Made by a program: the position numbers and the translations under genes. The notes under the pieces are model-generated. The model was given only the letters and a program-made list of their open reading frames with translations. It made no database searches and was not told the origin of the DNA. Positions 1,879 through 45,340 of a stretch of DNA of 55,051 bases are shown here, piece after piece; position 1 is the stretch's first letter; every line of letters begins with the position of its first letter. Origin of the DNA: an uncultured virus (IMG/VR IMGVR_UViG_3300029258_001513) (taxonomy: Duplodnaviria; Heunggongvirae; Uroviricota; Caudoviricetes); the IMG/VR virus record IMGVR_UViG_3300029258_001513; one strand, written 5' to 3'.

Positions 1879-1954
1879 GGGTGCGTAGGTCAATGGCAGA
1901 CCGAGGGGCTCTAACCCCCTGCGTTGCCGGTTCGAGTCCGGTCGCACCCCCCCA
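1879..1954 (+). tRNA. Amber suppressor tRNA, anticodon CUA
   Basis: GGGTGCG/CGCACCC acceptor, GGTC/GACC D arm, AGGGG-CTCTAAC-CCCCT anticodon arm, GCCGG-TTCGAGT-CCGGT T arm; one extra C before CCA. Confidence 0.9.
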
Positions 1955-2693: not shown

Positions 2694-3209
2694 ATGAAAC
2701 AAAGTCTCACGGGGTGGTTGAGGGAGAATGCAGACGGGCTGAAGGACAGGGAGGCAGTGGTGGCGGAAGCTGCCAAGGTGTTTCCCGAAAAGGGTCGCGA
2801 TTCCGTTATCCGGCGAATGACTGAGTTGGTCAACGCGGGTGAAATCAAGCCGAAGCCTCCCACTGAAAAACCCAAGAAGTCTGTTGCGGAGCGTCCGCGA
2901 AGTGGAGCACCAATCAAAAAGGTGCCCCGGAGGTTCAGGATGGCGGTGGATGTGACGAAGGTACAGGGTGAATACGACGACGAAGCCAAGATTGATGAAG
3001 GTATTGACAATCTTGGCACAAGCATCATCAAGGACAATGATTTCCGGGTGGAACTGGGCATCGCTATGGATAGGTGGAAGCTCGTTTCCAGTCTGGAGAA
3101 ATACAGCAGGAACAAGATTGACTTACGTGGCAAGCAGTTCAAGGGGACGTACTGGGGGCAGGAAGAAGTGCTTGTGAGTCTTCGTAAAAAGATAGACATG
3201 ACGGACTAA
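2694..3209 (+). CDS. Hypothetical protein
   Basis: 171-aa ORF with AGGAGA RBS. Confidence 0.75.
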   Translation: MKQSLTGWLRENADGLKDREAVVAEAAKVFPEKGRDSVIRRMTELVNAGEIKPKPPTEKPKKSVAERPRSGAPIKKVPRRFRMAVDVTKVQGEYDDEAKIDEGIDNLGTSIIKDNDFRVELGIAMDRWKLVSSLEKYSRNKIDLRGKQFKGTYWGQEEVLVSLRKKIDMTD

Positions 3210-3222
3210 AGCGAGGTGTATC

Positions 3223-4383
3223 ATGGCGAAGAATGGAAAGCCTGTTTCTCCTGACAAGGTGATTGACGCACAGGATGTGGTAGATGATGTCAACCCGTCT
3301 CCCGCGTTGACGAAGTTACGCAAGGACAACGCGAAGCTCCGAACCCGTGTTGACGAACTGAAGCTGGCTCTTGGCGAGGACGAGGAGTATTTCGATGTCA
3401 TTCGCAAGAGTATAGACGCAATCGAGCCGCTCCCCCTGATTCCGTATGAGCCGCCGGAGGACAAGAAGACCATCGGTTCCGCACTTTCGGCGGTGTTGGT
3501 TTTGAGTGACTGGCACATAGGGGAGTACGTGGAGCCCGACGAGATTGAGGATTTCAACACGTTCAACTGGCTTATTGCACAGAGGCGTGTTCACTACCTC
3601 TGCGAGAAGTTGATTGCGTGGGCGAATATCCAGCGTATCGCCGCGAAGATTGAGGAACTGGTTATCATCGTGGCGGGCGACCTTATCTCGGGTGACATCC
3701 ATCAGGAGCTTCAGGTTACGAACGAATGGCCGGTCCCGGTACAGAATGTCAAGGCAGCGTACTTGCTGTCTAAGGCGGTATCTCAACTCGCTCCTCATTT
3801 CAAGAAGGTCCGGGTGGAGTTCGTGACGGCAGACAATCATGCCCGTCGGACAAAGAAGCCGCAGTACAAGCAGACCGGTTTCAACTCCGAGGGATACGTC
3901 ATTGCGTTTCTGGCAAAAGAGCGTCTGCGTGCTCACAAGAACGTCGAGTTCAACGTCCACTCGAAAATCAAAACCAACGTGCCCATTTGCGGGTTCCCGT
4001 ATCTGTGCCAGCACGGTAATACGATTCGTGGTTGGGCGGGGTATCCGTGGTACGGCGTGGACCGTCAGGTTTCCCGCGAGGCAAAGGCTCGCCGGATGAT
4101 GCCGACGAAGACGTTCTACAAGTGCATCATCGGGCACTTCCATACGCCCCTCAAGACGATGGATTACATCGTGAACGGCAGCCTGACGGGAACGACCGAG
4201 CTTGACCACGGGCAGGGCAGGCACGCTCCGCCGTGTCAGGTCGCGTTCTTGGTCCACCCGAAGTATGGCGATTTCAACTTCAACGAGTTCTACCTGCACT
4301 TCGGGGATGAGATTGATTTCGGAGGAGCGGAACTCGTTCACGACCCGGAGGACGAAGATGCCATCACCGAAGCAATACATTGA
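3223..4383 (+). CDS. Calcineurin-like metallophosphoesterase / nuclease
   Basis: SDWHIG, GDLISG, DNH, QHG, GHFH motifs. Confidence 0.8.
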   Translation: MAKNGKPVSPDKVIDAQDVVDDVNPSPALTKLRKDNAKLRTRVDELKLALGEDEEYFDVIRKSIDAIEPLPLIPYEPPEDKKTIGSALSAVLVLSDWHIGEYVEPDEIEDFNTFNWLIAQRRVHYLCEKLIAWANIQRIAAKIEELVIIVAGDLISGDIHQELQVTNEWPVPVQNVKAAYLLSKAVSQLAPHFKKVRVEFVTADNHARRTKKPQYKQTGFNSEGYVIAFLAKERLRAHKNVEFNVHSKIKTNVPICGFPYLCQHGNTIRGWAGYPWYGVDRQVSREAKARRMMPTKTFYKCIIGHFHTPLKTMDYIVNGSLTGTTELDHGQGRHAPPCQVAFLVHPKYGDFNFNEFYLHFGDEIDFGGAELVHDPEDEDAITEAIH

Positions 4384-5954: not shown

Positions 5955-6179
5955 GGTCACGGGATGCGTCGGGGCTCATACCCCCGTTCCACCGGCTTGA
6001 TACTTCGACGGAGTAGCTGAAGACGCCTCGTGAATCCCGTTATGGCGAAACGGGATGAGGCGGGATAGGTGAAAAGAGACGAGAGGAAGGCAGGGGTGAG
6101 CATCGTTTCCGAGTCTGTTTTCGCTTCGCCAAGCGTATTCAGACGGAGTTATCAGGTTCGAGTCCTGCCGTGACTACCA
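5955..6179 (+). ncRNA. tRNA-fMet-like RNA lacking a D arm, with ~165-nt insert
   Basis: GGTCACG/CGTGACT-ACCA ends, CGGGG-CTCATAC-CCCCG arm, CAGG-TTCGAGT-CCTG T arm. Confidence 0.6.
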
Positions 6180-6186
6180 CTTTCTT

Positions 6187-6214
6187 TCAGAATCCCGGAC
6201 GGCTCGTGCAATGA
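6187..6214 (+). promoter_or_regulatory. Phage promoter motif A
   Basis: TCAGAAT-N13-TGCAATGA before ATG 6221. Confidence 0.75.
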
Positions 6215-6220
6215 GGAAGC

Positions 6221-6559
6221 ATGAAAGAACTTGATGCGATACGTCAGTCGGAGGACATGAAGCGGCTTGTCTCCCTGACTTCCGAGGTGGAAGCTCTGAA
6301 GTGGAAGGTGACGGCTCAGGTTGAGGATGCTTGTGCGGTTTACGGGAAGCCGGGGGAGTTGCTGACGGATTGGGAGAAACGGCTGGATGCCGTGGAGCGG
6401 CTCGTTGAGCATGAGGACGTACAGGCTGTCTGGGATGACGGTAAGACGCAGACGGCGACGAACCCCTTGGGGTTCCTTCAGTTTGAGGTTCGGAGGGTAC
6501 GGAGGGCCATTGAGCAGCATCGGGAGATGGGGCTCAGTCGGTGTCCTCGAAAAAGTTGA
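6221..6559 (+). CDS. Hypothetical protein
   Basis: 112-aa ORF behind motif A. Confidence 0.7.
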   Translation: MKELDAIRQSEDMKRLVSLTSEVEALKWKVTAQVEDACAVYGKPGELLTDWEKRLDAVERLVEHEDVQAVWDDGKTQTATNPLGFLQFEVRRVRRAIEQHREMGLSRCPRKS

Positions 6560-6568
6560 AAAAAGTTG

Positions 6569-6597
6569 TTGCGTGCCCCAAGGCTGGGGAGTATAGT
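6569..6597 (+). promoter_or_regulatory. Sigma70-type promoter of the tRNA operon
   Basis: TTGCGT-N17-TATAGT with upstream A tracts. Confidence 0.7.
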
Positions 6598-6670
6598 GCG
6601 GTTGTGATTGGGGAGGAATCCCCCGCACGGTGGCTTTAGGAGTCACTGTGCCGACAGGAGAAAAGGAACA

Positions 6671-6748
6671 ATGAAGGCGTTATTGTCGAGTTCATTCTTT
6701 AGCCTGTGTGGCTATTCCAATAGCCTCACCGGAAGGGGTGTGCTCTGA
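6671..6748 (+). CDS. Attenuator leader peptide MKALLSSSFFSLCGYSNSLTGRGVL
   Basis: AGGA RBS; last codons contain the antiterminator strand GGAAGGGGTGT. Confidence 0.8.
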   Translation: MKALLSSSFFSLCGYSNSLTGRGVL

Positions 6749-6776
6749 CCTGACACCGTAGAACAGAGCGATTGAC

Positions 6777-6816
6777 ACCCCTTCCTCGGCGAAAGCCGGA
6801 GAAGGGGTTTTTGTTT
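6777..6816 (+). terminator. Intrinsic terminator of the tRNA-operon attenuator
   Basis: ACCCCTTC-CTCGGC-GAAA-GCCGGA-GAAGGGGT hairpin followed by TTTTGTTT, immediately before the first tRNA. Confidence 0.85.
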
Positions 6817-6893
6817 GGACTGATAGCTCAGATTACATGGTAGAGCGGCGGGTGAAATTCCGCAGGTCGTGAGTTCGATTCTCACTTAGTCCA
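6817..6893 (+). tRNA. tRNA-Phe(GAA)-like with atypical anticodon loop
   Basis: Full cloverleaf, but anticodon arm GCGGG-TGAAAT-TCCGC is 1 nt short; enlarged D loop. Confidence 0.6.
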
Positions 6894-6970
6894 CAAGCTG
6901 GTAACAGCATTGTTCATTGACAATTGAATGAGATTGCGGGGCAGACCACGCCAAAGGTCTGTCCCGATAC

Positions 6971-7046
6971 GGAGTGTGTGCAGGTCTGGTGATTGCGCTG
7001 GTCTGAAAAACCAGAGAATCCGGTTCGATTCCGGGACACTCCACCA
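6971..7046 (+). tRNA. tRNA-Phe(GAA)
   Basis: CTGGT-CTGAAAA-ACCAG; encoded CCA. Confidence 0.9.
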
Positions 7047-7179
7047 TCGTCGAAGCACGCTTCAGCAGAGCGATACATCACTGGTTCGATTCCAGTATTC
7101 CCCGCCAGAGGGTATAATCTGGGGAATACGCCCACTGTTGGTTGGGCATACCGTTCAGCGGCTATCGGTGCGGAGACGA
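7047..7179 (+). ncRNA. Y RNA (YrlA)-like permuted tRNA mimic, copy 1
   Basis: GTCGAA..CGCTTCAGCA..GATAC 5' strand, GCGGCTATCGGTGCGGAGACGA 3' strand; inside: T arm, acceptor 3' strand+GCCA, loop, acceptor 5' strand, D arm. Confidence 0.7.
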
Positions 7180-7183
7180 ATTT

Positions 7184-7268
7184 GGATGAGTGGCGGAATT
7201 GGCATACGCGCAAGACTCAGAATCTTGTGTCTTCGGGCATACGAGTTCAAATCTCGTCTCATCCACCA
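7184..7268 (+). tRNA. tRNA-Leu(CAG)
   Basis: CAAGA-CTCAGAA-TCTTG, long variable arm, CCA. Confidence 0.92.
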
Positions 7269-7494
7269 GCAAGGGAAAAGAAAGGTCAGCGAATCTATTG
7301 GCTCGTGCAGTCACGTGAGCGGGTACGAGGGAGACCGATATCGGGATGAAATAAGACCTCCCTTGCACGAATTTGATGTTCAGGAGGGAACGCCAGAACA
7401 GAAAGCTGGGGCAATGTCCGTGCGAGTTGTCCCGTACAAAGCCGAGAAGGCAGCTACGGCAGAGGGGTAAAAGTCCTCCATTCGCACGGTCTAC

Positions 7495-7580
7495 GGGCGA
7501 GTGGCGTAATCAGGCAGCCGCGACAGGCTTAGAACCTGTTGACTTCGGTCGTGCGAGTTCGACTCTCGCCTCGCCCACCA
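7495..7580 (+). tRNA. tRNA-Leu(TAG)
   Basis: ACAGG-CTTAGAA-CCTGT, long variable arm, CCA. Confidence 0.92.
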
Positions 7581-7590
7581 GAGGTGTATA

Positions 7591-7758
7591 ATGAAAAATA
7601 TGAAGACGATGAAGTGTTGTGTTTGTGACAAGGACGTGAGGCTGGACGGGGAGCCCCCCCCGAAATGGTTCGGGAAGTATAACGTGGACAAGTTAATTCG
7701 TGTTATATGTCGTGAATGTGTTATGCTTCCTGAGAACAAGGATTGGTGGAAAGACTGA
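7591..7758 (+). CDS. Small Zn-finger-like protein (55 aa)
   Basis: GAGGT RBS; CCVC...CREC. Confidence 0.55.
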   Translation: MKNMKTMKCCVCDKDVRLDGEPPPKWFGKYNVDKLIRVICRECVMLPENKDWWKD

Positions 7759-7760
7759 AT

Positions 7761-7845
7761 GCCGATGTGATGGAACTGGCAGACATGCGACTCTCAAAAA
7801 GTCGTGCCTTCGGGCGTGTGAGTTCGATTCTCACCATCGGCACCA
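7761..7845 (+). tRNA. tRNA-Leu(CAA)
   Basis: CGACT-CTCAAAA-AGTCG, CCA. Confidence 0.92.
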
Positions 7846-7949
7846 TTTTGACGGGACAACCGTAGAAGCAAACTGAGTCATTCCTTTAGCGGGGAACAAG
7901 ACAGGGGAAGCGAAGGTTGTAACAGAGGGTAGCCCTTCTCCCGTCTTAT

Positions 7950-8040
<91 letters not shown>

Positions 8041-8265
8041 ATGTTGAAACGATGTGGAATATGTGCGAAGCCGATACTCGGAGTGGGGCTTGAGGATGTT
8101 GCTTGTCCGGGACATAGGGATGTCCCGTTTGACGAGTGGGAATTACTGGTGATGAAATGCCCCAACGGTTCAGTGGCGATAGGAAGTGAAATTGAAATAC
8201 AAGGATGGCAGGAAGAAACAGAAGACCAGAACAAGCTGGTGCAAGTTCTGGAAGTGGCACCGTGA
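8041..8265 (+). CDS. Small hypothetical protein
   Basis: ATG directly after the tRNA CCA; CxxC. Confidence 0.45.
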   Translation: MLKRCGICAKPILGVGLEDVACPGHRDVPFDEWELLVMKCPNGSVAIGSEIEIQGWQEETEDQNKLVQVLEVAP

Positions 8266-8322
8266 GAAACGAACGTGCCGGAAGGAGGACACCATGAGCG
8301 AGGATGGCTATACAAGAGAAGG

Positions 8323-8379
8323 GAGATGCAAGTAAGGCAGACTGGCAATCTGCGCGTGGCCGTAACCTGCGTCTCACCA
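8323..8379 (+). ncRNA. Armless tRNA-like hairpin (GGC anticodon loop, ACCA end)
   Basis: GAGATGCA/TGCGTCTC-ACCA; GCAGA-CTGGCAA-TCTGC. Confidence 0.45.
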
Positions 8380-8383
8380 ATAT

Positions 8384-8474
8384 GGGCGGTTGTAGCTGAG
8401 CGGCGAAAGCACCAGACTGTAAATCTGGCACCTAATGGTAAACATCGGAGGTTCGAGTCCTTCACCGCCCACCA
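8384..8474 (+). tRNA. tRNA-Tyr(GTA)
   Basis: CCAGA-CTGTAAA-TCTGG, long variable arm, CCA. Confidence 0.88.
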
Positions 8475-8647
8475 AGTATTACTGAATCGGTGAGTATTCC
8501 CGATAAGTAATAAAGGCAATTTGAGTAATAGAAGGGAAACAATAGTTCCCGAATAGGAACTTGAGCAACAAAAGGGAGCAGGAACGACTCTTTTTGTTAC
8601 ACGAAATACAACATAAATGTTGTGAAAGGCGACACGGAATACAACAT

Positions 8648-8721
8648 GGCGGGTTGGCCGAGTGGCTAGGTGCGTGGCTGCAAACCACGATACATCAGTT
8701 CGATTCTGATACCCGCCTCCA
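8648..8721 (+). tRNA. tRNA-Cys(GCA)
   Basis: CGTGG-CTGCAAA-CCACG, U73, CCA. Confidence 0.92.
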
Positions 8722-8806
8722 ATGATTCCACGGATATGTTCAATTTCACTGCCGAGTGAAATGAACGGTTTCAGTAAAACGAAATGAGTCGTTGTCCGAG
8801 TGGCGA

Positions 8807-8881
8807 GGTGCGATGGCCGAGGGGTAAGGCGGGAATCTGCAAAATTCCATTTCATCAGTTCGATTCTGATTCGCACTTCCA
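8807..8881 (+). tRNA. tRNA-Cys(GCA), second copy
   Basis: GGAAT-CTGCAAA-ATTCC, U73, CCA. Confidence 0.9.
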
Positions 8882-8883
8882 AA

Positions 8884-9108
8884 ATGAAGACGAAGTTGAT
8901 ATCGAGGGTACTTGAGAGAAGAATTGAAGCCAGAGAGAACGCTGCTGCCCTATTTGGAAGGGTATGTCGGGATTACGACGGGTGGGCCTGCTGGTCGGGC
9001 TCAGAGGATTGCATGATGGTTCACAAGAAGGTCGGGAAAAGAGGAGGCCCCGAGACAAGGTTTGTCAGGGGCTCCGTGGCAGTCGTTGCGGATGAGAGGC
9101 CAGCGTAA
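8884..9108 (+). CDS. Small hypothetical cargo protein
   Basis: ORF between tRNA-Cys and an orphan tRNA 3' half. Confidence 0.5.
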   Translation: MKTKLISRVLERRIEARENAAALFGRVCRDYDGWACWSGSEDCMMVHKKVGKRGGPETRFVRGSVAVVADERPA

Positions 9109-9166
9109 ACTCGCTACATCAGTTTAATTCTGATACGGCTCTTCGGGTGAAGAAAGGAGACGTAAG

Positions 9167-9406
9167 GTGAGATTAGACGACGTGATTGTTGGCTTGAGGA
9201 AGATTGGCCTGTGTGCCTGTCATGTCGAGTGTTTTGGGACTGAAGAAGGAATCGGACATTACAGCCATCCGTATCCCGGAGACCAGTATGGCTGGTTCAA
9301 GACCAAGAACGGCATGTTGATAATGGTGGTCTTTTACAAGCCGATAACGGAGGATAAGAAGAGGATTGCCGAGGATTGGATTGAGAAGTGGGAAATTCAC
9401 GTGTAG
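9167..9406 (+). CDS. Small hypothetical cargo protein
   Basis: AGGAG RBS; flanked by duplicated tRNA 3' fragments. Confidence 0.6.
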   Translation: MRLDDVIVGLRKIGLCACHVECFGTEEGIGHYSHPYPGDQYGWFKTKNGMLIMVVFYKPITEDKKRIAEDWIEKWEIHV

Positions 9407-9474
9407 TTCAATTCTGATACGGCTCTCTAAGTGTTTGCACAAAGAGACATAATACGCTACATTGTGCAAATGGT

Positions 9475-9502
9475 TCAGAATTATCGTTGTCTTGTGCAAT
9501 GA
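9475..9502 (+). promoter_or_regulatory. Phage promoter motif A
   Basis: TCAGAAT-N13-TGCAATGA ahead of an ncRNA. Confidence 0.75.
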
Positions 9503-9512
9503 GGGAAGCGAA

Positions 9513-9666
9513 GGGCAGTGCCAAGGTCGGCACCGTACTGGCGAAAGCCGATACCCCGGCGATAACCGAAAAGGGTCGCAACCTTACGGGTCGGGGATTG
9601 CCGGGGAACGGCATTCAGGCATACCGTGGTGCGGCATGATGAGTTCGACTCTCATACTGTCCATCA
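9513..9666 (+). ncRNA. tRNA-like RNA with G3:U70/A73 and anticodon loop replaced by a structured insert
   Basis: GGGCAGT/ACTGTCC-A, ATGAG-TTCGACT-CTCAT T arm, CCGTACT/GGTGCGG closing stem. Confidence 0.65.
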
Positions 9667-9674
9667 GATTTGAT

Positions 9675-9703
9675 TCCAGTGTGGCTCAATTGGTAGAGCG
9701 GGG
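9675..9703 (+). pseudogene. Orphan tRNA 5' half (Asn-like)
   Basis: TCCAGTG-TG-GCTC-AATTGGTA-GAGC truncated just before the HNH gene promoter. Confidence 0.6.
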
Positions 9704-9716
9704 ATAACACGTCTTG

Positions 9717-9732
9717 ATAATTCTTTGATATT
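9717..9732 (+). promoter_or_regulatory. Phage promoter motif B
   Basis: ATAATTCTTTGATATT upstream of AGGAGG RBS. Confidence 0.6.
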
Positions 9733-9759
9733 GGTTTCTCTCTGTAGAAGGAGGTTACC

Positions 9760-10308
9760 ATGTCAAAGAGTTCAGAGAAGGTTAAGAGGTGGCGGCGAAG
9801 GACAAAAGAGCGTTTGGTAAGGGCAATGGGTGGGGAGTGTGTATGTTGTGGGTACTCAAAGTGCTTGGATGCTCTTGAATTCCATCATCGAGACCCGAAT
9901 GAGAAGGATGTGGGTATAGGGGGAATCCGTGGAAATGTGGTTGCATGGAAAAGGATTATTGAAGAGGTAAAGAAATGCGTCCTTGTGTGTAGTAATTGTC
10001 ATAAGGAAATTCATCGTGGAATATCTTTTATTCCTGTCGATGCGAAAGGGTTTGACGAATCTTATGAGGATTATCGAAAAAGTAAGGTGATTGAGATGGA
10101 GCCGTGTCCTGTTTGTGGCGGACCTAAAGCAACTCACCTGAAAACCTGCTCACATGTTTGTGCGGCAAAGAGGAAAAGTCCCGTTGATTGGGATTCTGTG
10201 AATCTTGAAGGGATGATGAAGGAGATGTCATTTGCGGAAATAGGTGACGAACTTGATGTTTCTGATATGGCAGTTCGTAAAAGGGCTAAAAAGTTAGGTC
10301 TAGTGTGA
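9760..10308 (+). CDS. HNH homing endonuclease
   Basis: GGECVCCGY..LEFHHRDP..LVCSNCHKEIH; C-terminal HTH-like segment; AT-rich. Confidence 0.85.
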   Translation: MSKSSEKVKRWRRRTKERLVRAMGGECVCCGYSKCLDALEFHHRDPNEKDVGIGGIRGNVVAWKRIIEEVKKCVLVCSNCHKEIHRGISFIPVDAKGFDESYEDYRKSKVIEMEPCPVCGGPKATHLKTCSHVCAAKRKSPVDWDSVNLEGMMKEMSFAEIGDELDVSDMAVRKRAKKLGLV

Positions 10309-10309
10309 T

Positions 10310-10400
10310 TCATCGGTACGCTAATTGGTAAGCGACGAAGCTGTTAACTTCGCGTATGGGAGCAATCCCTATGGAGGTTCGAGTCCTCCCCGATGAGCCA
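10310..10400 (+). tRNA. tRNA-Asn(GTT) with long variable arm
   Basis: CGAAG-CTGTTAA-CTTCG, U1-A72, G73, CCA; 20-nt variable region. Confidence 0.85.
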
Positions 10401-10673
10401 GTTCCAAGGGTAGTTGGCTTAATGGCAGCCAGCTTTAATGAGTGGGTCGCTGAGAATCGTTCCGTGATCGCCGGAGGAATCCCGGCTATTCGGAATGGGG
10501 CAGCAGAGATGAGATACAGGCCGGACGCAACCGGATGTCAGACTGCTCTGTTGTCAGGCAAAGGGGGGTTGCGGCTCCCGGCGGGGAAAGCATTTCGTGT
10601 GATTCTTTAGCATCCCGCAGGCCATACTCAATCGCACGGTGGACTCTTTGGCGTAACAGCACGCCTTTGGAAC
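10401..10673 (+). ncRNA. Unidentified structured RNA
   Basis: Ends pair (GTTCCAAGGG/CCTTTGGAAC); fills the gap between tRNAs; several internal hairpins. Confidence 0.5.
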
Positions 10674-10677
10674 GTTT

Positions 10678-10752
10678 TGCGAGATGCGGCCAATTGGTCT
10701 AGGCCGGGGATAGCGCGTCCCGATGCAAGTTCGAGTCTTGCTCTCGCAGCCA
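10678..10752 (+). tRNA. tRNA-like gene with non-canonical anticodon loop (TAGCGCG)
   Basis: TGCGAGA/TCTCGCA-GCCA, intact D and T arms, no U33. Confidence 0.6.
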
Positions 10753-10753
10753 A

Positions 10754-10918
10754 TCGTCGAAACACGCTTCAGCAGTGAGATACTTCGCTTGCAAAGCCCG
10801 GTGCTCGTAAGAGCGTGCAGGTTCAAGCCCTGCTCCGGTGACTGAAAGGTTGCCGGATGGCGGAACTGGCAGACGCGCCGGATAACGTGACTCGTTGCGG
10901 CTATTGGTGTGGAGACGA
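10754..10918 (+). ncRNA. Y RNA (YrlA)-like permuted tRNA mimic, copy 2 (Leu-like)
   Basis: Same flanking strands as copy 1; encloses Leu-type variable arm, T arm, closed acceptor stem and GCGGAACTGGCAGACGC D arm. Confidence 0.7.
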
Positions 10919-11015
10919 AATGGAGGGTTGCCAGAGCATGGTAATGGGCGGAAAGCTGTTGCGTTGCTAGTTTGCTTATGATAGTCTGTCTGTGAATTAC
11001 CACGGGAGGACTGTC

Positions 11016-11534
11016 ATGGGAAGAAAAGCGAATGCAATTTGTGATAGGTGTGGGAAACCCTATTATCGAAGGCCATACCAAGAGGCTTACGAACACGGGT
11101 ATTGTTCTCGGAAGTGTTTTGCAGTTGGGAAAACCATTCCTGAGAGGGAGTGTCAGCACTGCAAGGCAATGTTCAAACCTGTGAAAAGGACGCAGCGGTA
11201 CTGTTCGAGAAGGTGTGCGGGGGTTGGCAGCAGGAGACCGTGGAGTACGAAGAAAAATGGAATGCCTCGTAATGCTAACGCGAAAAGGCTTGCGTTCCTG
11301 AAAGAGAAGTCTGGAGCGGATTGCTGTATGGTCCAAGGTTGTGATTATGGGAGGACGCTTGATGTTCATCGGTTAGTTGAAGGAAAGGATGGCGGGAAGT
11401 ATTCTTTGGGCAATATGTTTATGATATGTCCAAACCATCATGCGGAAATTCATCGTGGTGTCGTAAGAGTGGAGAAGGGGGGAGATTTCGTTCTTCGGGC
11501 GATAGACGCTGGAGACATGGCAGAGTCAGGCTAA
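11016..11534 (+). CDS. HNH endonuclease with N-terminal CxxC..YCS..C repeats
   Basis: LDVHRL..GGKYSLGNMFMICPNHHAEIH; GGAGGA RBS. Confidence 0.85.
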   Translation: MGRKANAICDRCGKPYYRRPYQEAYEHGYCSRKCFAVGKTIPERECQHCKAMFKPVKRTQRYCSRRCAGVGSRRPWSTKKNGMPRNANAKRLAFLKEKSGADCCMVQGCDYGRTLDVHRLVEGKDGGKYSLGNMFMICPNHHAEIHRGVVRVEKGGDFVLRAIDAGDMAESG

Positions 11535-11603
11535 TGCACTCGACTGCTAATCGAGAGGCGTCAGAGATGGCGTCCGTGGGTTCAAATCCCACTGTCTCCG
11601 CCA
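11511..11603 (+). tRNA. tRNA-Ser(GCT)
   Basis: CTCGA-CTGCTAA-TCGAG, long variable arm, GCCA; overlaps the HNH 3' end. Confidence 0.92.
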
Positions 11604-11617
11604 GAGAGGAGGATGAG

Positions 11618-11728
11618 ATGAATGCTTATGTACAACTGTTTCTTGGCATTCTTGTGGTATGTGCCATGTGGAAGATGGCAGATAGGATGTGTATTGTATT
11701 TCGCACAAGGAAGCGGGGGAGGCGTTGA
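11618..11728 (+). CDS. Small membrane peptide (36 aa)
   Basis: GGAGGA RBS; MNAYVQLFLGILVVCAMW...RKRGRR. Confidence 0.5.
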   Translation: MNAYVQLFLGILVVCAMWKMADRMCIVFRTRKRGRR

Positions 11729-11785
11729 TTGCTAAACCGAGACGCGGTAACACGTACAGGGGTTCAAATCCCTTACCCTCCGCCA

Positions 11786-11965
11786 GTTGCGAAGTACGCT
11801 TCAGCACGAGGGATACTTCTTCTAACTGTTGATTAGAACGACAAGGTTCGAGTCCTTGGCCCGGAGCCAATACGAGTAGTTGACGGATATGTCAACTGCG
11901 TGTATTCATTCCGGGTGCATGGTGCTAGTAATCGTGCCCCTTGGCGACTATCGGTACGGAGCAAC
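11786..11965 (+). ncRNA. Y RNA (YrlA)-like permuted tRNA mimic, copy 3 (Asn-like)
   Basis: Covarying flanks GTTGC..GTAC/GTAC..GCAAC; anticodon arm TCTAA-CTGTTGA-TTAGA, T arm, GCCCGGA-GCCA, TCCGGGT, D-like arm. Confidence 0.7.
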
Positions 11966-11968
11966 ATT

Positions 11969-12058
11969 GGAGAGTTGCCAGAGTCAGGTCAATCGGGCTC
12001 GCTTGGAAAGCGATGCGTGGTAAAACACACGGGGGTTCAAATCCCTCACTCTCCGCCA
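11969..12058 (+). tRNA. tRNA-Ser(GGA)
   Basis: TCGC-TTGGAAA-GCGA, GCCA. Confidence 0.9.
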
Positions 12059-12282
12059 GACCCGAACCGTGAAGTCCGGCGACTCATAATCAAAGGGCGT
12101 ACAGGAACGGGATAGGTGCCGCCCGACGGGGATGGGGCATTATACAGGGAGATGAAATGGCTACCACTTCTCAGATGGCTAGTTGAAAGACCCGTCAAGC
12201 TATAGGTCGAGGAGACAGGCCGGGAAGTTCTCCTGTGGGCCGTGGGTAGGTTGCAAGTATCCCACGGATACGTCTCCATCAA

Positions 12283-12373
12283 GGAAGGTTGCCAGAGTGG
12301 TAATGGGACGGTCTCGAAAACCGATGCCACGGTGATGAGCCGTGCGGGAGTTCAATCCTCTCACCTTCCGCCA
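12283..12373 (+). tRNA. tRNA-Ser(CGA)
   Basis: CGGT-CTCGAAA-ACCG, GCCA. Confidence 0.92.
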
Positions 12374-12534
12374 GAGTCGCTTCTTGTGTAGCGTGAATTG
12401 AAACGACGTGGGGAATCGTGAAGATGATGACACCAACATTTCGGTTGAGACAGCCCGGTGAAATGTCCATCACGGACAGGAAGAACATGCTGGCTCATCC
12501 GGGATGCGTGGTGACGTGGGATGAAACAGAGGAT

Positions 12535-12625
12535 GGAGGGTTGGCAGAGCGGGAATGCGACGGTCTTGAAAACCGATGCCACGGTGATGAGCCGTGCGGG
12601 AGTTCGATTCTCTCACCCTCCGCCA
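12535..12625 (+). tRNA. tRNA-Ser(TGA)
   Basis: CGGT-CTTGAAA-ACCG, GCCA. Confidence 0.92.
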
Positions 12626-12757
12626 GAGGAACACTTGGCTTGCGAGCCGGGTAACACGTGAAATGCCAAGTCTGAGAAATCCATCAGCGGCAGGCAGTTG
12701 CGACGGCACATAGTGGGCAAGACTGTTCGTTCCAGAGTACCCGTGTTCCTTGTTTTG

Positions 12758-12842
12758 GCCGGAGTGATGGAATTGGCAGACAACCTACACTTAAAATGTG
12801 GGGCTTTCGGGCGTGGGAGTTCGAGTCTCCCCTCCGGCACCA
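12758..12842 (+). tRNA. tRNA-Leu(TAA)
   Basis: CTACA-CTTAAAA-TGTGG, CCA. Confidence 0.9.
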
Positions 12843-12847
12843 TGTAC

Positions 12848-13120
12848 GGGCGTGTGGCAGAAGTGGACGAATGCACCAGTAATCCGGTAGTGAACTGGCT
12901 CCCGTAATAGGGGCACTGGCTGAGCACTCGGGGTAAATATAGCAGCGTTGTTGCGTTCCCTCAGAGACTCAAATTGGCAGGGTTGTAAAGAGCTTCCGTG
13001 GCGGTGTGCCCAAAGCGAAGAGTGGATGGTACGCGGGTTGGAGTAACAGCGCGGTGATGCCCGGTTCCCAAACGCCAATTGGTCAGTGTTTTACGGGTTC
13101 AAATCCCGTCACGTCCATCA
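12848..13120 (+). ncRNA. tRNA-like RNA with G3:U70/A73 and ~197-nt insert in place of the anticodon loop
   Basis: GGGCGTG/CACGTCC-A, D arm, CCAGT/ATTGG stem, ACGGG-TTCAAAT-CCCGT T arm. Confidence 0.7.
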
Positions 13121-13148
13121 ATCTCATTCAGTTGTCAGTGACTTCCTT

Positions 13149-13176
13149 TCAGAATCCTGCCTCTTTCGTGCAATGA
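13149..13176 (+). promoter_or_regulatory. Phage promoter motif A
   Basis: TCAGAAT-N13-TGCAATGA before ATG 13183. Confidence 0.75.
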
Positions 13177-13182
13177 AGGGGT

Positions 13183-13569
13183 ATGAAGACGAAAGAAGAA
13201 GCGACCCGACCCCGGATACCGCAGGTCGTGAAGACCAATCATCCGAAGCCCCATGACGATGTGTGGCGGCTTCCGGACGGCTGGTCCTACGAACTGGATT
13301 TCCAGATTTTCAGCCGGTCGCATTGTGTGACCATCCTCTATGAAACGCCCGCCTATACGGGAACTGTCTACTGGCATTTCAACTGTTGCTGGGGTGAGTT
13401 CGCCGGGGCTTTCGAGTGGGAGGGGGAAACCCTGCACGCTTCGTCCGGGGCTGACCTTGGTGAAAAGCTCGGCATCCCGAAGGACTACTATGTTCGTTCC
13501 GGTAAGGACGGCTGGCAGAAGCTCCTGACCCGCGAAATGTTCGAGATGTGGCTTCGGGAGCAGGCGTGA
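13183..13569 (+). CDS. Hypothetical protein
   Basis: ORF behind motif A. Confidence 0.7.
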   Translation: MKTKEEATRPRIPQVVKTNHPKPHDDVWRLPDGWSYELDFQIFSRSHCVTILYETPAYTGTVYWHFNCCWGEFAGAFEWEGETLHASSGADLGEKLGIPKDYYVRSGKDGWQKLLTREMFEMWLREQA

Positions 13570-14291: not shown

Positions 14292-14611
14292 GGGCATCTG
14301 AGAAATTCGGTGGTCTGGCGAGCCGTACTGACGGTCCTGACGAGTTTGCCCGTGAGGGATGCGATGCCGGAATGTTCGTTTCCATGTCTGAGGGTCGTCG
14401 AATCTGGCACGGCGTTGTGGAATGTCCCAAGTGCAAAGCTGCCATGAAAGAAACCCGTCAGATGCACCTGCACCATGTGGATGTCTTCATGGAGTGCCCG
14501 GACTGCAAGACGAGGGTTCCGCCACGGTGTACGTGTCACGGGATGGCGGAGGCTCTTCGCTCAAAGCCGTCGGCTCTCAAGCAGGCGGGATGGGGAGGGC
14601 TTGCACAATGA
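14288..14611 (+). CDS. Hypothetical Zn-ribbon protein
   Basis: CPKC..CPDC; ATGA-coupled. Confidence 0.6.
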   Translation: MRASEKFGGLASRTDGPDEFAREGCDAGMFVSMSEGRRIWHGVVECPKCKAAMKETRQMHLHHVDVFMECPDCKTRVPPRCTCHGMAEALRSKPSALKQAGWGGLAQ

Positions 14612-18099: not shown

Positions 18100-18694
18100 G
18101 CAGTACGACCGGATTGTGGATGTCTACGAAGCAATCCCGATGGACGGCTCTATCTCCGTGCTGACCGGGCGTAACGGTTCCGGCAAGTCCCTTATCCGTC
18201 AGCAGTTGACTTTCCGGGCTCGGAAGAAGGACAGTCAGGCTCGTATCTATGACGCTTCCATGGAGCGTCGAACGGCGGCTCATGGCGGTGGTCTGGGTGC
18301 CTTCATGCGGGATACGTCTTGGAATCCGACATCCGTGAATACTCTGGACTTCATCCGGCAAACCATGAACCGGGAACACGGTTTCGTTGTGCTGGATGAA
18401 ATAGAGGTTGGGTGTGGGGAAGAGACCGTAAGGGGTCTTGTGAGTTGGCTGAACGCTAATCTCCGGGATGGCATCAAGAACACCATGGGTGCCTTGGTAA
18501 TCACGCACAGCCGGTACGTGGTGGAGAACCTGACGTTCGACCACTGGTTCAATCTGGACGGTTTCGAGACACCACAGGATTGGTGCCAGCGGGCACGGAA
18601 GACGGCTGACTTGGAACAGCTTCGCAGGGACAGTATCGACCTGTTCCGGTACGTGACATCCATGATCAAAGAAGCCAAAGCAAAGCGTAAATGA
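18071..18694 (+). CDS. ABC/AAA-type P-loop ATPase
   Basis: Walker A GRNGSGKS, Walker B VVLDE, H-loop ITHS. Confidence 0.8.
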   Translation: MTKARKAIVEQYDRIVDVYEAIPMDGSISVLTGRNGSGKSLIRQQLTFRARKKDSQARIYDASMERRTAAHGGGLGAFMRDTSWNPTSVNTLDFIRQTMNREHGFVVLDEIEVGCGEETVRGLVSWLNANLRDGIKNTMGALVITHSRYVVENLTFDHWFNLDGFETPQDWCQRARKTADLEQLRRDSIDLFRYVTSMIKEAKAKRK

Positions 18695-22769: not shown

Positions 22770-23081
22770 ATGGCAGGAATCCAATGGCGTGAGGTAAGGG
22801 GCTACGAGTTTACCCCCGAAGAGGCTCAAGCGGCTTCCGATTTCTCGGAAATCGTGAATTTGCATGGTCTCGACCTTGAAGCGGCGTATAATCTGTTCAA
22901 AGCCAAGGGGACAACTCTGGGGGTTGGACAGCGGCTCCTCTTTGCCGAGAAGATACCTATTGACCGGGCGACCGTGCTTTTGCTTTGTGACCCTGACGAG
23001 CGTATCAGGGGTGTCGTGGAGAAGCGGGTCGCCGAACACAGGGAGCAGGAAAGTGGCGGAATCATCACAGCCCGAGTATGA
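22770..23081 (+). CDS. Hypothetical protein
   Basis: 103-aa ORF. Confidence 0.6.
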   Translation: MAGIQWREVRGYEFTPEEAQAASDFSEIVNLHGLDLEAAYNLFKAKGTTLGVGQRLLFAEKIPIDRATVLLLCDPDERIRGVVEKRVAEHREQESGGIITARV

Positions 23082-26000
23082 CAAGGCCAAGCTGAGGAAA
23101 GAACTCATCAAGGGCATTGTCCATCTTGCCCGGCACAAGGAGTTCTACGGGCACATTGTCCAGCAGTTCGAGAAGGTCTGGGTGTGTGGCAAGCATCGGA
23201 TAGAGACAGCCGCAGTCGGGCGTTTTCGCGGCGAGCGTTTCATCAAGATGTGGATGAACATGGATTTCTTTGCCGGTATCTTTGCCGAGAACACCCGTGA
23301 GCAGGCGTGGACATACATGCTGAACGTGCAGGAGCACGAAATCATCCATTGTTTTCCGAAGGGGACAATGGTTGGTGGCTCGTTTGTACCGATAGAAAAG
23401 ATGACTGAGGGAATGGCTATTGTGGGTTCTGATGGGGAAAGGCATGAGGCAGAGCGGGTTGAGTCTCGTCGGTACACAGGGGGTTTGGTGTCTATTAAGC
23501 CGATGGGGGTAATGCCTTTTAATGTGACGGACCATCATCGCATTCTTGTGGCTGACATTGGCTGGAAAACCATCAACACCGATAAGCCAAGACGGAATGT
23601 GCGCTTAATACGGAACGTTGGCTGGAAGGAATCCCAAGATGTAAAGAAGGGGGATTGGCTTGCTGTTCCTCGGATGAAGGGACACAGGGAAGATGTCGAG
23701 ATAGACGTGTCTCAATATATGAAGGGGAACAAATGGAGTCTCCCTTGGGGGGTGCGAGTGGGCCGGATTCCTCTGAATGAGGATGTTGCGTGGTTGCTTG
23801 GGTATTATTGTGCCGAAGGTAGTGCAAGTTGCTCTACGGGGCAAGTGATATTCTCAATGCACGAGAAAGAGCGAGTTTCTAATGGCTCTGAAGTGGCCCG
23901 AATTGTTGAGGGATGGGGTCTTGGGGGTAAGCCTTTCTATCAGCGAGGAGAAGGTCATTCGTTGAGGATTGTTTTCAATTCCGTTGTAATGGCTCGGATG
24001 CTTCGGGATATGGCGGGGTACCACGCTAACACCAAGGCGGTTCCTCCAGAAGTGTTTTGGCATCGTGATGATGGTATTGTAAAGGCTTTTCTTCGTGGAT
24101 ATTTCGATGGAGATGGCGCAACGGAGAGCGAGGTGTTCTCGTCAGCGAGTGTGTCCAGCACATTAGCCTGTCAGCTTCAAATGATGTCTGCCCGTATCGG
24201 AGCATGGATGAACATGCACTTTGATGAGCTTTCTAGGCAGCCTCCAAGGGTCATTGTCAGTGGGAAGCCGAGAAAACTGAAGGACCAATACCGTTTGCAT
24301 TCTGGTGGCGATGATATCCGTGTGTTGCTCGGATATAGTCCCGTGAGAAAGAAGGGCAGGGTAACACGGCATCATGTCATCAGTGAAGACTTCATCTTTG
24401 TTCCTGTAAAAGAAGTGTCCCGGCAAGAGAAGTGGTCGGGGACGGTCTATAACCTTCGGAGTCCGACAAAGGATTATCTTGTTCACAATGTCGTAGTTCA
24501 TAATTGTGTGTTCGGGCACCTCTTCCTGACGTTCGAGGACAAGACTCGTGGTGGCGTGGCGGTGGATTGTGTGGTCAACGGGATTATGAATCCGCAGGAC
24601 GATAAGAAATTGATGCCGGGGAATTACGTCCATCCTGCCCATTATGGATTTCCGCTGGACAAATCCGCCATGTGGTACTATACACATCTTCGGGAAAACC
24701 CGCGTTTCCAGCAGCAGTGCAAGTCCGGGGCTTTCGGGGCTGGTGGTGCCCTGTCTCACATCATGTCCGGGCACAGTGCGTGGGATGACGTGAAGGACGA
24801 CCCTGTTGCTCAGGAGTTTGCCAAGGATATTGTTCGCAAGGCTAAAGACCTTTGCAACAAGCAGTACGGGAACATTCCCGGTGCGGTTCAGCAGCAGATA
24901 GAGGAACTGCTCAAGCGTAAGAAGGCGATTGTTCCGTGGGGACGGGTTCTCCGAATGTTCTGTGCCTCGGCACAGGAGTCTATACTGGACTACACGGTCA
25001 AGAGGGTGAGTAGACGGTACGGGACTCGTCCGGGGACACGGAAGGGCGATGTGCTCAAGCTGGCTGTGGCTATTGACACGTCGGGATGTTTTGTTGGAGA
25101 AACGTTGGTCCCAATGGCAAATGGAGGAATCAAACGAATTGACGATGTGGTGGAGGGAGATATGGTCGTGTCGTCGGCGTTTGGCGGTTGCCAAGTGCCC
25201 AGAAAATGTACCAATGTATTTGAAAAAGAAGCAACGGAGCTTGTCTCTGTGACAGCGGACAAGGGATTTTCATTTACCTGTACCCCAAATCACCGAATCT
25301 TCGTTTTGCGGCCAGAAGTCGGGCCGAAGCGTATTCGTAAATATGATAAACTTAGACGGGGAAAGATGATGAATGAGCTTCGAGAAAGCTCTGTTGTTGA
25401 AATTCCGGCAGAAGAGCTTCAGCCGGGAGACTGGCTGATAACAACACATGGTTCTGCACCTTGGATGACTCCGTTAGAGGGCTCTCTTCTACCAATGACG
25501 GATGCTCAGTCTGGAATGTATGTTACAGAGTCGGATATTTCGGAAGCTGATAGGCTAAAGAGGCAAAAGGGGGTATCCTATCGGAAACAGCACAGGGACG
25601 GAATGATGCGTTTTCATTATGCGTCAATCTTGGAAGCGAAGCGGCGAGGTGTCAGCAAAACGCTTCCGGTAATACCGAAGCAACCGACGGATGATTTTTG
25701 TCAGATTGTTGGATATGCGATTGGTGATGGGCATTTGTCCGATGCAACTTTTGTGGTAACGGACGAGTCTCGTAGTCGTCTTGATCTATACAATGACTTG
25801 ATGGTAGGCGTTTTCGGTTTGACGGGAGATATCAAGGAGTGGGATCGTAGAAGGCTTGTTGTAAACTCGAAGCCGCTAGTGGAATGGTGGAAGGACAGTT
25901 TACCAGAGACCGTTGTCCGTTCTCCGGACAGGACAATTCCGCAGTCTTTGACTCGTTTGCCGGATAGCAAGATTGCTGCACTCCTTCGGGGATTGTTTGA

Positions 26001-26805
26001 CGCAGAGGGTTCTGTTGGTCCGCATTATGTTAACTTTGCCAATTCGTCCAGAAGTCTACATGAACAGATTCATTTGCTTCTCCTCCGGCTTGGAATAGAA
26101 TCAACCATTTGTGATTCAAATGTGGATGACAGGGAGATTAGCGGGCACGTGATAAAAGGGGGAGGGCACTGGCGATTAAGCATTTACGGATTGGAGAATC
26201 TTGAAAGATTTGAAGAGATTGTTGGATTCGGGTGTCAGGAAAAGGCTATGAAGCTGGCGCGAGTCGTAGAGTCAATTGGCTTGTATCACAACAATGGTTC
26301 ATTCCCCTACACTGAACATCAAAGGCTGGTACAAGTGAGGGCTGTTGAGAAGACCAAATTGTCGCAACCAGTTTTGGTTTATGACCTTGAAATTGAGGGA
26401 GAGCACAATTACATGGCGAATGGTGTTGTGGTTCATAATTCTATCAGTGATGAGCAACTCGTATTGTTCTGGAACGAGATAAACTGGGTGCGGCGTAATG
26501 GTGCCGAGGTATGGATTTACGAATGTGATACGCAAATCTCTCCCCGGTCGCCATTCAAGTATCGTGGCAAGTGGGATGGTACGGTTCACGGTCGCGGGGG
26601 CACGGACCTTGAGCCGCCTCTCAAGGAATGCGAGGGCAAGTATGATGCTCTCATCTACTTTACGGATTTCTATGCTCCGCAGATTGAAACCCAGTATCGG
26701 ATTCCGATTCTGTGGGTTCTGACGACGGAGTTGGAAAAGGATGCTTACCCCTATCGGTGGGGAAAGCACATCAAGATAGACGACGGCAAAGCCGTGGCAG
26801 CATGA
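23053..26805 (+). CDS. DUF2201-like metallopeptidase + vWA protein with two inteins
   Basis: HEIIH|CVFGH zincin motif, AIDTSG|S MIDAS, GRGGTD, IYFTD; probable GTG start 23053. Confidence 0.85.
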   Translation: MAESSQPEYDKAKLRKELIKGIVHLARHKEFYGHIVQQFEKVWVCGKHRIETAAVGRFRGERFIKMWMNMDFFAGIFAENTREQAWTYMLNVQEHEIIHCFPKGTMVGGSFVPIEKMTEGMAIVGSDGERHEAERVESRRYTGGLVSIKPMGVMPFNVTDHHRILVADIGWKTINTDKPRRNVRLIRNVGWKESQDVKKGDWLAVPRMKGHREDVEIDVSQYMKGNKWSLPWGVRVGRIPLNEDVAWLLGYYCAEGSASCSTGQVIFSMHEKERVSNGSEVARIVEGWGLGGKPFYQRGEGHSLRIVFNSVVMARMLRDMAGYHANTKAVPPEVFWHRDDGIVKAFLRGYFDGDGATESEVFSSASVSSTLACQLQMMSARIGAWMNMHFDELSRQPPRVIVSGKPRKLKDQYRLHSGGDDIRVLLGYSPVRKKGRVTRHHVISEDFIFVPVKEVSRQEKWSGTVYNLRSPTKDYLVHNVVVHNCVFGHLFLTFEDKTRGGVAVDCVVNGIMNPQDDKKLMPGNYVHPAHYGFPLDKSAMWYYTHLRENPRFQQQCKSGAFGAGGALSHIMSGHSAWDDVKDDPVAQEFAKDIVRKAKDLCNKQYGNIPGAVQQQIEELLKRKKAIVPWGRVLRMFCASAQESILDYTVKRVSRRYGTRPGTRKGDVLKLAVAIDTSGCFVGETLVPMANGGIKRIDDVVEGDMVVSSAFGGCQVPRKCTNVFEKEATELVSVTADKGFSFTCTPNHRIFVLRPEVGPKRIRKYDKLRRGKMMNELRESSVVEIPAEELQPGDWLITTHGSAPWMTPLEGSLLPMTDAQSGMYVTESDISEADRLKRQKGVSYRKQHRDGMMRFHYASILEAKRRGVSKTLPVIPKQPTDDFCQIVGYAIGDGHLSDATFVVTDESRSRLDLYNDLMVGVFGLTGDIKEWDRRRLVVNSKPLVEWWKDSLPETVVRSPDRTIPQSLTRLPDSKIAALLRGLFDAEGSVGPHYVNFANSSRSLHEQIHLLLLRLGIESTICDSNVDDREISGHVIKGGGHWRLSIYGLENLERFEEIVGFGCQEKAMKLARVVESIGLYHNNGSFPYTEHQRLVQVRAVEKTKLSQPVLVYDLEIEGEHNYMANGVVVHNSISDEQLVLFWNEINWVRRNGAEVWIYECDTQISPRSPFKYRGKWDGTVHGRGGTDLEPPLKECEGKYDALIYFTDFYAPQIETQYRIPILWVLTTELEKDAYPYRWGKHIKIDDGKAVAA
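23350..24504 (+). mobile_element. Intein with LAGLIDADG endonuclease
   Basis: CFPKGT...LLGYYCAEG...FLRGYFDGDG...VVHN|C. Confidence 0.9.
25087..26439 (+). mobile_element. Intein with LAGLIDADG endonuclease
   Basis: CFVGET...TPNH...IVGYAIGDG...LLRGLFDAEG...VVHN|S. Confidence 0.9.
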
Positions 26806-45312: not shown

Positions 45313-45340
45313 GGCGGTAATCCGGGTTGATTGGGTGGCG

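Follow-up and report, generated by a model that had tools for sequence, protein, structure and literature searches.

The tRNA genes of a large uncultured tailed phage are preceded by a short leader ORF that probably acts as a ribosome-dependent transcription attenuator, giving feedback on the supply of the tRNAs whose codons it contains. That the attenuator is translation-coupled is very likely. The window (the whole stretch of DNA analysed, 55,051 nucleotides of IMG/VR record IMGVR_UViG_3300029258_001513) is part of this phage and carries genes for a terminase, an intein-bearing portal, topoisomerase IB and a tRNA nucleotidyltransferase. Six of the 10 listed runs contain half or more of the window; all are sediment or seawater DNA, and four are possible sources of it.

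The switch and the tRNA array that follows it lie on the + strand. Its predicted sigma70-type promoter (6550-6597) has an A/T-rich upstream tract, a -35 element at 6569-6574 and a -10 element at 6592-6597, and 6569-6597 reads TTGCGT, 17 bp, TATAGT. A strict consensus scanner missed this promoter; the site was aligned at the same place in all six relatives aligned. The spacer of the window's promoter contains a short palindrome, which was not evident by eye in these aligned relatives. A Shine-Dalgarno sequence, AGGAG (6656-6660), is found 10 nt 5' of the leader ORF (6671-6748), which contains 25 sense codons and a TGA stop. Codons 4-19 (6680-6727) are the control codons. The antiterminator (2:3, 6731-6785) is formed by pairing of 6731-6747 with 6764-6769 and 6775-6785. 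It is predicted as a 17-bp interrupted helix, and 6726-6794 folds at -33.1 kcal/mol (z -5.7). The predicted intrinsic terminator (3:4) and its U tract (6777-6816) end right at the first tRNA gene, with -23.7 kcal/mol (z -4.9) for 6777-6808 plus the U tract. An alternative 1:2 helix (6685-6749) pairs 6685-6704 with 6731-6749 and encloses an inner hairpin at 6706-6729; single-sequence folds give -29.1 kcal/mol and z -2.8 for the helix and z -3.8 for the hairpin. The 1:2 helix loses to the 2:3 antiterminator at loop length in the nascent-RNA model. Helices like it appear in ribosome-free folds of five of the six relatives (L051, L053, L057, L070, and L084), and it is a candidate pause or protector hairpin. 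A 7-nt motif at the stop codon (6745-6751) is invariant in 7/7 aligned leaders and is kept even in L056, whose leader stops in another frame; we suspect an RNA-level signal.

The first-pass annotation of this DNA had described the promoter, the ribosome-binding site, the ORF, codons 4-19, an 11-nt complement and the terminator, and all of these are in the sequence as it described them. The complement, in which 6731-6741 is the exact reverse complement of 6775-6785, is part of a longer antiterminator than had been noted. The leader sequence is not a one-off assembly error, because a contig of run X6, a run that is not marked as a possible source of the window, equals 6390-6975 without differences. 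Cis-regulators in Rfam, including the T-box, had no match in 6569-6816 at gathering score or at E up to 1.

The array (6817-12842) is interspersed with remnants and small ORFs. Its order is a Phe-like gene (6817), Phe GAA, Leu CAG, TAG, CAA, and GAG, Tyr GTA, two copies of Cys GCA, Asn GTT, Ser GCT, GGA, CGA, and TGA, and Leu TAA. Between 6971 and 12842, ARAGORN reports tRNAs with 13 different anticodons, the same 13 that had been named from the sequence at the outset. The terminator does lie directly before the first tRNA gene, as had been claimed, but that gene (6817-6893) is a Phe-like one with an abnormal anticodon loop of 6 nt (or 8 nt), found by Rfam and not by ARAGORN; the same letters stand in the second assembly (run X6). 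It is read here as a pseudogene or decoy. Candidate internal promoters (9435-9501) are located upstream of Asn, the four Ser genes, and Leu TAA. One is a sigma70-like site (9435-9463), found with a search pattern derived from it and from the leader promoter, and hence not independent of them. The other (9475-9501) is one copy of a motif that is repeated nine times in the phage. These candidate sites may express Asn, Ser, and Leu(TAA) separately, and the switch may therefore not gate the whole operon.

The array is followed by a tRNA-like RNA with a structured insertion of about 190 nt (12848-13117), which ARAGORN in intron mode reads as Gly(GCC) and which matches no Rfam family at gathering score. 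A copy in L057 (about 13042-13311) is 75% identical, with compensatory acceptor pairs and a G3-U70 pair. This RNA may be a further isotype, and Gly, Trp, or a non-tRNA RNA are all possible readings. The initial statement that no other clear isotype is encoded agrees with the ARAGORN set but may fail for this RNA. Both phages that carry it, the window's and L057, have GGC as leader codon 14.

Other elements are scattered in and around the array. Two long RNAs (5957-6179 and 9513-9663) have, by eye, an acceptor stem and a T arm and no normal anticodon arm, and neither has a match among the fetched loci. A tmRNA called by ARAGORN at 9513-9663 is doubtful, as Rfam support is absent. An HNH endonuclease gene (9760-10308, phrog_35854) and an HNH-like ORF that matches no family (10992-11534) each have an apparent tRNA 5' half before them and an intact Asn or Ser gene after them. 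At 10682-10752, 11710-11785, 11794-11873, and 7049-7107 there are tRNA remnants, among them an odd loop, a partial Ser GCT, and a partial Asn GTT, and two short motifs that each occur three times inside the array.

The match between leader and array is far beyond chance but imperfect. Leader codons 2-19 carry a cognate codon for 12 of the 13 array anticodons. The claim that the leader samples the codons decoded by the array therefore holds for these 12 and fails in two places: Leu(TAG) is unmatched, since CTA is absent from the leader, and the array has no canonical tRNA for GGC at codon 14. Codons 4-19 contain 14 different matched codons, spread over four Leu and five Ser codons, and AGC alone occurs twice. 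The array reads 20 of the 61 sense codons, which make up a fraction of 0.252 of the 12,653 codons in the phage's genes. Against this usage, 15/18 of codons 2-19 are read by the array (binomial p 3.8e-7), as are 15/16 of codons 4-19 (p 1.3e-8, for a stretch chosen after the fact). At least 11 anticodons are matched in only six of 66,351 stop-free 18-codon windows in six frames, and all six overlap the leader; the best of 12,045 18-codon windows inside genes matches 10. At least 15 set codons are found in 25 of the 66,351 windows, so amino-acid bias alone is not unique. Modelled pairing in the control region appears to favour pyrimidine-rich Ser, Leu, and Phe codons.

The switch was modelled with the RNA cut at the terminator loop and a ribosome that masks to 12 nt past the P-site start. 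In the window the modelled antiterminator probability is 0.98-1.00 with A-site codons 2-18, 0.57 at codon 19, 0.10 at codon 20, and 0 after that; masking of the ribosome-covered strand switches the fold, which favours the attenuator in a check that the first-pass annotation had proposed. In each of the seven leaders, the model loses the antiterminator no more than about one codon away from the last matched codon. In L053 and L084 its probability has a plateau near 0.7 and a dip at codons 2-5. Nascent RNA free of ribosomes gives 1.00 in the window and 0.70-1.00 in the relatives at the loop cut; four bases beyond the cut, the value for ribosome-free L070 is 0.35. In equilibrium folds of the full-length RNA, the terminator is the favoured state wherever the ribosome is placed in L051, L053, L070, and L084, and for most placements in L057; in ribosome-free full-length RNA a state with the 1:2 helix and the terminator wins in five of six relatives. 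Because the terminator is favoured at full-length equilibrium, the switch must be kinetic, which is approximated here by truncation.

We propose that host RNA polymerase starts at 6569-6597 and that a ribosome translates the leader. When Leu, Ser, Phe, Cys, Tyr, and Asn codons are read fast, the ribosome would reach codon 20 or beyond and cover 6731-6747, the terminator would form, and transcription would end before the first tRNA. If one isoacceptor is scarce, whether cleaved, uncharged, unmodified, or over-demanded, the ribosome would linger at codons 4-18, so that 6731-6747 could pair with the 5' strand of the terminator and the tRNA genes would be transcribed. Fresh tRNAs would then speed up reading of the leader and close the switch, which is negative feedback. 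Theory predicts little sensitivity when a regulatory codon is one of many (PMC1183508); single-codon changes measurably shift his attenuation in the portion of PMC4046918 consulted. We infer that the switch would respond in a threshold-like way when any one isoacceptor is severely depleted, and in a graded way when tRNAs are broadly short.

Relatives were collected with an exonuclease/phosphoesterase-like gene (3223-4383, + strand, phrog_284 in PHROGs), which lies upstream and outside the switch and served as a synteny marker. With this marker 79 metagenome loci were fetched, and the marker protein occurs on contigs of up to 190 kb. L047 and L048 are the same phage as the window, and L047 adds 6.8 kb. 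The promoter, the leader, both helices, and a similar tRNA block are found in six of 14 close relatives (L051, L053, L056, L057, L070, and L084), whose marker proteins are 55-65% identical; L053 and L084 are near twins. The leader was not seen in the other eight close loci inspected. Among these, L049 ends at the promoter and L050 before it, in L052 a tRNA follows the marker gene by 95 nt with no leader between them, and L054, L055, L059, L060, and L061 have no tRNA in the available DNA. A sequence model of the seven leaders gave eight matches in 51 sources, namely the training set and the identical L047. When viral contigs were scanned with DNA patterns of the leader, no usable locus emerged (four loci had no tRNAs and one was unrelated by eye), and a search with the single marker protein matched no viral locus. 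GenBank phages gave tRNA-length matches only, plus a 22-nt match at E 0.3.

The orthologous ORFs of the six relatives have 25-29 codons. The stem letters vary and the pairing is retained, with antiterminator z of -3.8 to -6.3 in the five relatives that were folded. In the terminator, seven of 12 consensus pairs are changed on both sides among six sequences, in an imperfect alignment. RNAalifold on MAFFT alignments recovered only six long-range antiterminator pairs, three of them with changes on both sides; these pairs are few because the helices slide between relatives, and we relied on single-sequence folds. A fixed arrest peptide was considered and is unlikely, since composition is conserved among the leaders and order and C-terminal frame are not.

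These comparisons bear on whether translation matters at all. The locus could be a structured RNA leader or a terminator with a fixed leak, the ORF and its codon bias being products of pairing constraints, and codons 5-19 do lie within predicted helices, while the 7-nt motif is conserved independently of frame. However, even with indels between them, all seven leaders retain a start codon, a ribosome-binding site, and a frame that stays open for 25-29 codons, and only two of 86,082 stop-free shuffles that kept the base composition reached 12 anticodons. We regard control that bypasses translation as very improbable.

The codon match is kept in the relatives as well. By hand count and without a shuffle control, array anticodons with a cognate leader codon number 12/12 in L057, 15/15 in L053, 12/12 in L084, 10/11 in L056, 12/12 in L070, and 2/2 in L051, or 63 of 64 over the six; most of these arrays are cut by locus or contig ends. 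In L053, 17/17 of codons 4-20 are read by its own array. In L056, GTG is absent for Val(CAC), and four control codons have no cognate tRNA in the available DNA. Val tRNAs occur in five relatives, and all five have Val control codons. GTC is found in the leader of L070 only, and no other array has Val(GAC). In the window, codons 2-19 include no Val codon, and there is no Val tRNA or remnant beyond short motif matches. Its GCG and TCA stand where L057, its closest leader relative, has GTG and GTA. The Val difference amounts to a single phylogenetic contrast, and Val tRNAs may be located beyond the 55 kb window and the 6.8 kb of L047. The comparison with relatives that the first-pass annotation had suggested thus bears it out: the ORF, the helices, and the codon match are kept, and Val codons follow Val tRNAs.

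The same data weigh on a classical alternative, in which the leader is a multivalent attenuator for amino-acid starvation of the thr or ilv type, reading uncharged tRNA with little regard to isoacceptor identity. The thr and ilv leaders sense several amino acids. Uncharged tRNA would stall the ribosome at the same place, and the architecture is that of classical attenuators as the available part of PMC1183508 describes them. Yet the regulated genes produce no amino acid, GTC is found only alongside Val(GAC), and the leader has four Leu and five Ser codons where classical leaders repeat the most starvation-sensitive codon (PMC1183508, in part). A starvation attenuator is therefore improbable in our judgement.

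Distant giant phages (G004, G005, and G007) share the marker gene, and their tRNAs are split into blocks, each with its own leader. In G004 and G005, four leaders jointly cover nearly all tRNA blocks and nearly all tRNA types. Counted by hand against their own leaders, Tyr/Leu/Ser blocks match at 9/9 (L036) and 8/8 (L136), the His-to-Trp block at 15/16 (L037), the Ile/Thr/Gln block at 5/5 (L040), and the block of GNN readers plus Cys at 11-12/13 (L039). As a cross-block control, the window's leader matches 8/9 of the L036 block, 3/16 of L037, 3/13 of L039, and 0/5 of L040. The L136 leader retains TTA and TCA, with no Leu(TAA) or Ser(TGA) detected in its block, which indicates that leaders can lag behind arrays. 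A small-ORF filter flagged a leader at one of 16 positions (L037), together with an unrelated ORF in L096, and the leaders of L036, L039, and L040 were read by eye. A sequence model of the window's leader family had no match in five distant phage records. No leader was seen by eye before the tRNAs of G001 (L045). A tRNA search of 10 further virus records showed arrays in G007 only; G009 and G012 have one tRNA each. Small ORFs with a terminator were also seen by eye before tRNA blocks of distant phages, in L042 (about 3894-4100), L043 (about 2975-3150), and L096 (about 14310-14440 and 18530-18670). The L042 ORF is long and mixed and precedes a 38-tRNA array.

A general translation-stress switch, similar to that of whiB7 or bmrB, would open the array upon any slowing or absence of the ribosome and would leave the codon match as a by-product or in decay. 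It draws on the nascent-RNA models, in which the antiterminator forms without a ribosome, and on a cyanobacterial tRNA array that is induced by translation-targeting antibiotics (PMC10272220, in part). A generic sensor needs none of the features found here, namely a match beyond chance that is block-specific and tracks Val isoacceptors, and untranslated transcripts may be terminated via the 1:2 helix. We consider such a switch unlikely, although the leader may respond to ribosome-targeting drugs as well.

The proposal that the leader is a dedicated counter-defence sensor, selected to detect host defences that cleave tRNAs and to switch on replacement tRNAs, is possible but on balance doubtful. 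Phage tRNAs rescue phages from defences that target tRNAs, to a degree that depends on promoter strength, in the sections of PMC11555353 and PMC10264068 consulted. One sample per isoacceptor suits the loss of a tRNA species better than the loss of an amino acid, and the phage also encodes a tRNA nucleotidyltransferase. However, the set of six amino acids fits no single nuclease described in the part of the tRNase literature consulted. Since the leaders of G004 and G005 jointly cover nearly all tRNA types, they indicate no single target, and general supply feedback fits them at least as well. Of the first-pass reading, the translation-coupled attenuator that samples the codons of the downstream tRNAs stands, and the specific tRNA-damage sensor was a step of inference; damage-specific sensing is not supported, because to the leader a cleaved tRNA would look the same as one that is uncharged or over-demanded. 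As a tentative extension, large phages might sort their tRNA genes into operons, each gated by a leader that checks one codon per isoacceptor of its own operon and co-evolves with it; jointly, these leaders would form an inducible surveillance of the destruction of individual host tRNAs by anti-phage defences, in which only the block with the lost tRNA is replaced.

Several side features of the phage were recorded. A two-part motif (TCAGAA, 14 nt, TGCAATG) has nine exact copies on the + strand, at 793, 5083, 6187, 9475, 13149, 14060, 15676, 17768, and 19219, where 0.08 are expected by chance. Most copies lie just upstream of genes, and the motif is a probable phage-specific promoter. A contig of runs X2 and X6 joins the repeated motif to the upstream tract of the leader promoter (6214 to 6552) via other letters. 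This joint is absent from the window and has only 21 letters on its short side; another such promoter may exist at a different place in the phage. A tRNA with a CTA anticodon lies upstream of the marker gene in the window (1879-1952) and in L049 (2484), L050 (4390), and L057 (6011). In L049 and L050 a shared ORF seemingly runs, by eye, through an in-frame TAG. TAG recoding in the window was rejected, as no long gene inspected by eye needed TAG readthrough. Three large genes, including that of the portal, contain an intein and LAGLIDADG domains (22864-26805, 37230-41825, and 45335-48199).

By its modelled structure the switch has the testable architectural traits of leader-peptide attenuators, and it falls outside the amino-acid operon class. 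As in the attenuators of thr and ilvGMEDA (also trp, his, leu, and pheA), the 3' end of the leader overlaps the antiterminator strand, the predicted 2:3 and 3:4 helices, with a candidate 1:2 helix, are mutually exclusive, and the control codons are tied to the operon product (PMC1183508, in the sections available). It differs from them in being phage-borne, in controlling tRNA genes and not enzymes, in covering six amino acids, and in having mostly one codon per isoacceptor and no runs of one codon. The leader has no repeated preferred regulatory codon, and tRNAs and small ORFs are found downstream instead of biosynthetic enzymes or synthetases. The pheST attenuator of Escherichia coli also gives feedback on the supply of a translation component, regulating the synthetase for one amino acid, whereas the output here is the tRNAs themselves. 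The whiB7/wblC and bmrB systems control resistance genes in an antibiotic or stress response and are not known to have an anticodon-matched codon set. They resemble the leader in that ribosome progress on a uORF decides transcription termination (PMC10274678 and PMC4191407).

The trn operon of Anabaena (L-array) is likewise a silent accessory tRNA array that is turned on under translational stress, but it is controlled by the DNA-binding repressor TrcR, according to the part of PMC10272220 consulted. In the tRNA-rich region of T5 (retron-Eco7, PrrC), phage tRNAs replace host tRNAs destroyed by defence; there, the effect is attributed to a strong promoter, and the term attenuation is absent from the main text (PMC11555353). 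The words attenuation, attenuator, leader, and terminator are also absent from the main text of PMC8421152. The same term look-up in PMC8421152, PMC2965389, PMC10264068, and PMC11555353 gave no leader-peptide attenuator of tRNA genes, and none was found in a literature search that covered mostly open-access work.

Why phages carry tRNAs has been a question open for decades, as passages of PMC10264068 put it. If the leader reads the availability of exactly the tRNAs in its array, then the trigger of the switch, be it tRNA cleavage, starvation, or codon demand, would tell what these tRNAs are for. What this locus contributes is a set of orthologues in which Val codons and Val tRNAs occur jointly or are jointly missing, and the leader would be a compact natural reporter for the loss of a single isoacceptor. 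With it, leader-peptide attenuation would reach beyond amino-acid operons to tRNA genes, where it would act as a direct negative feedback loop.
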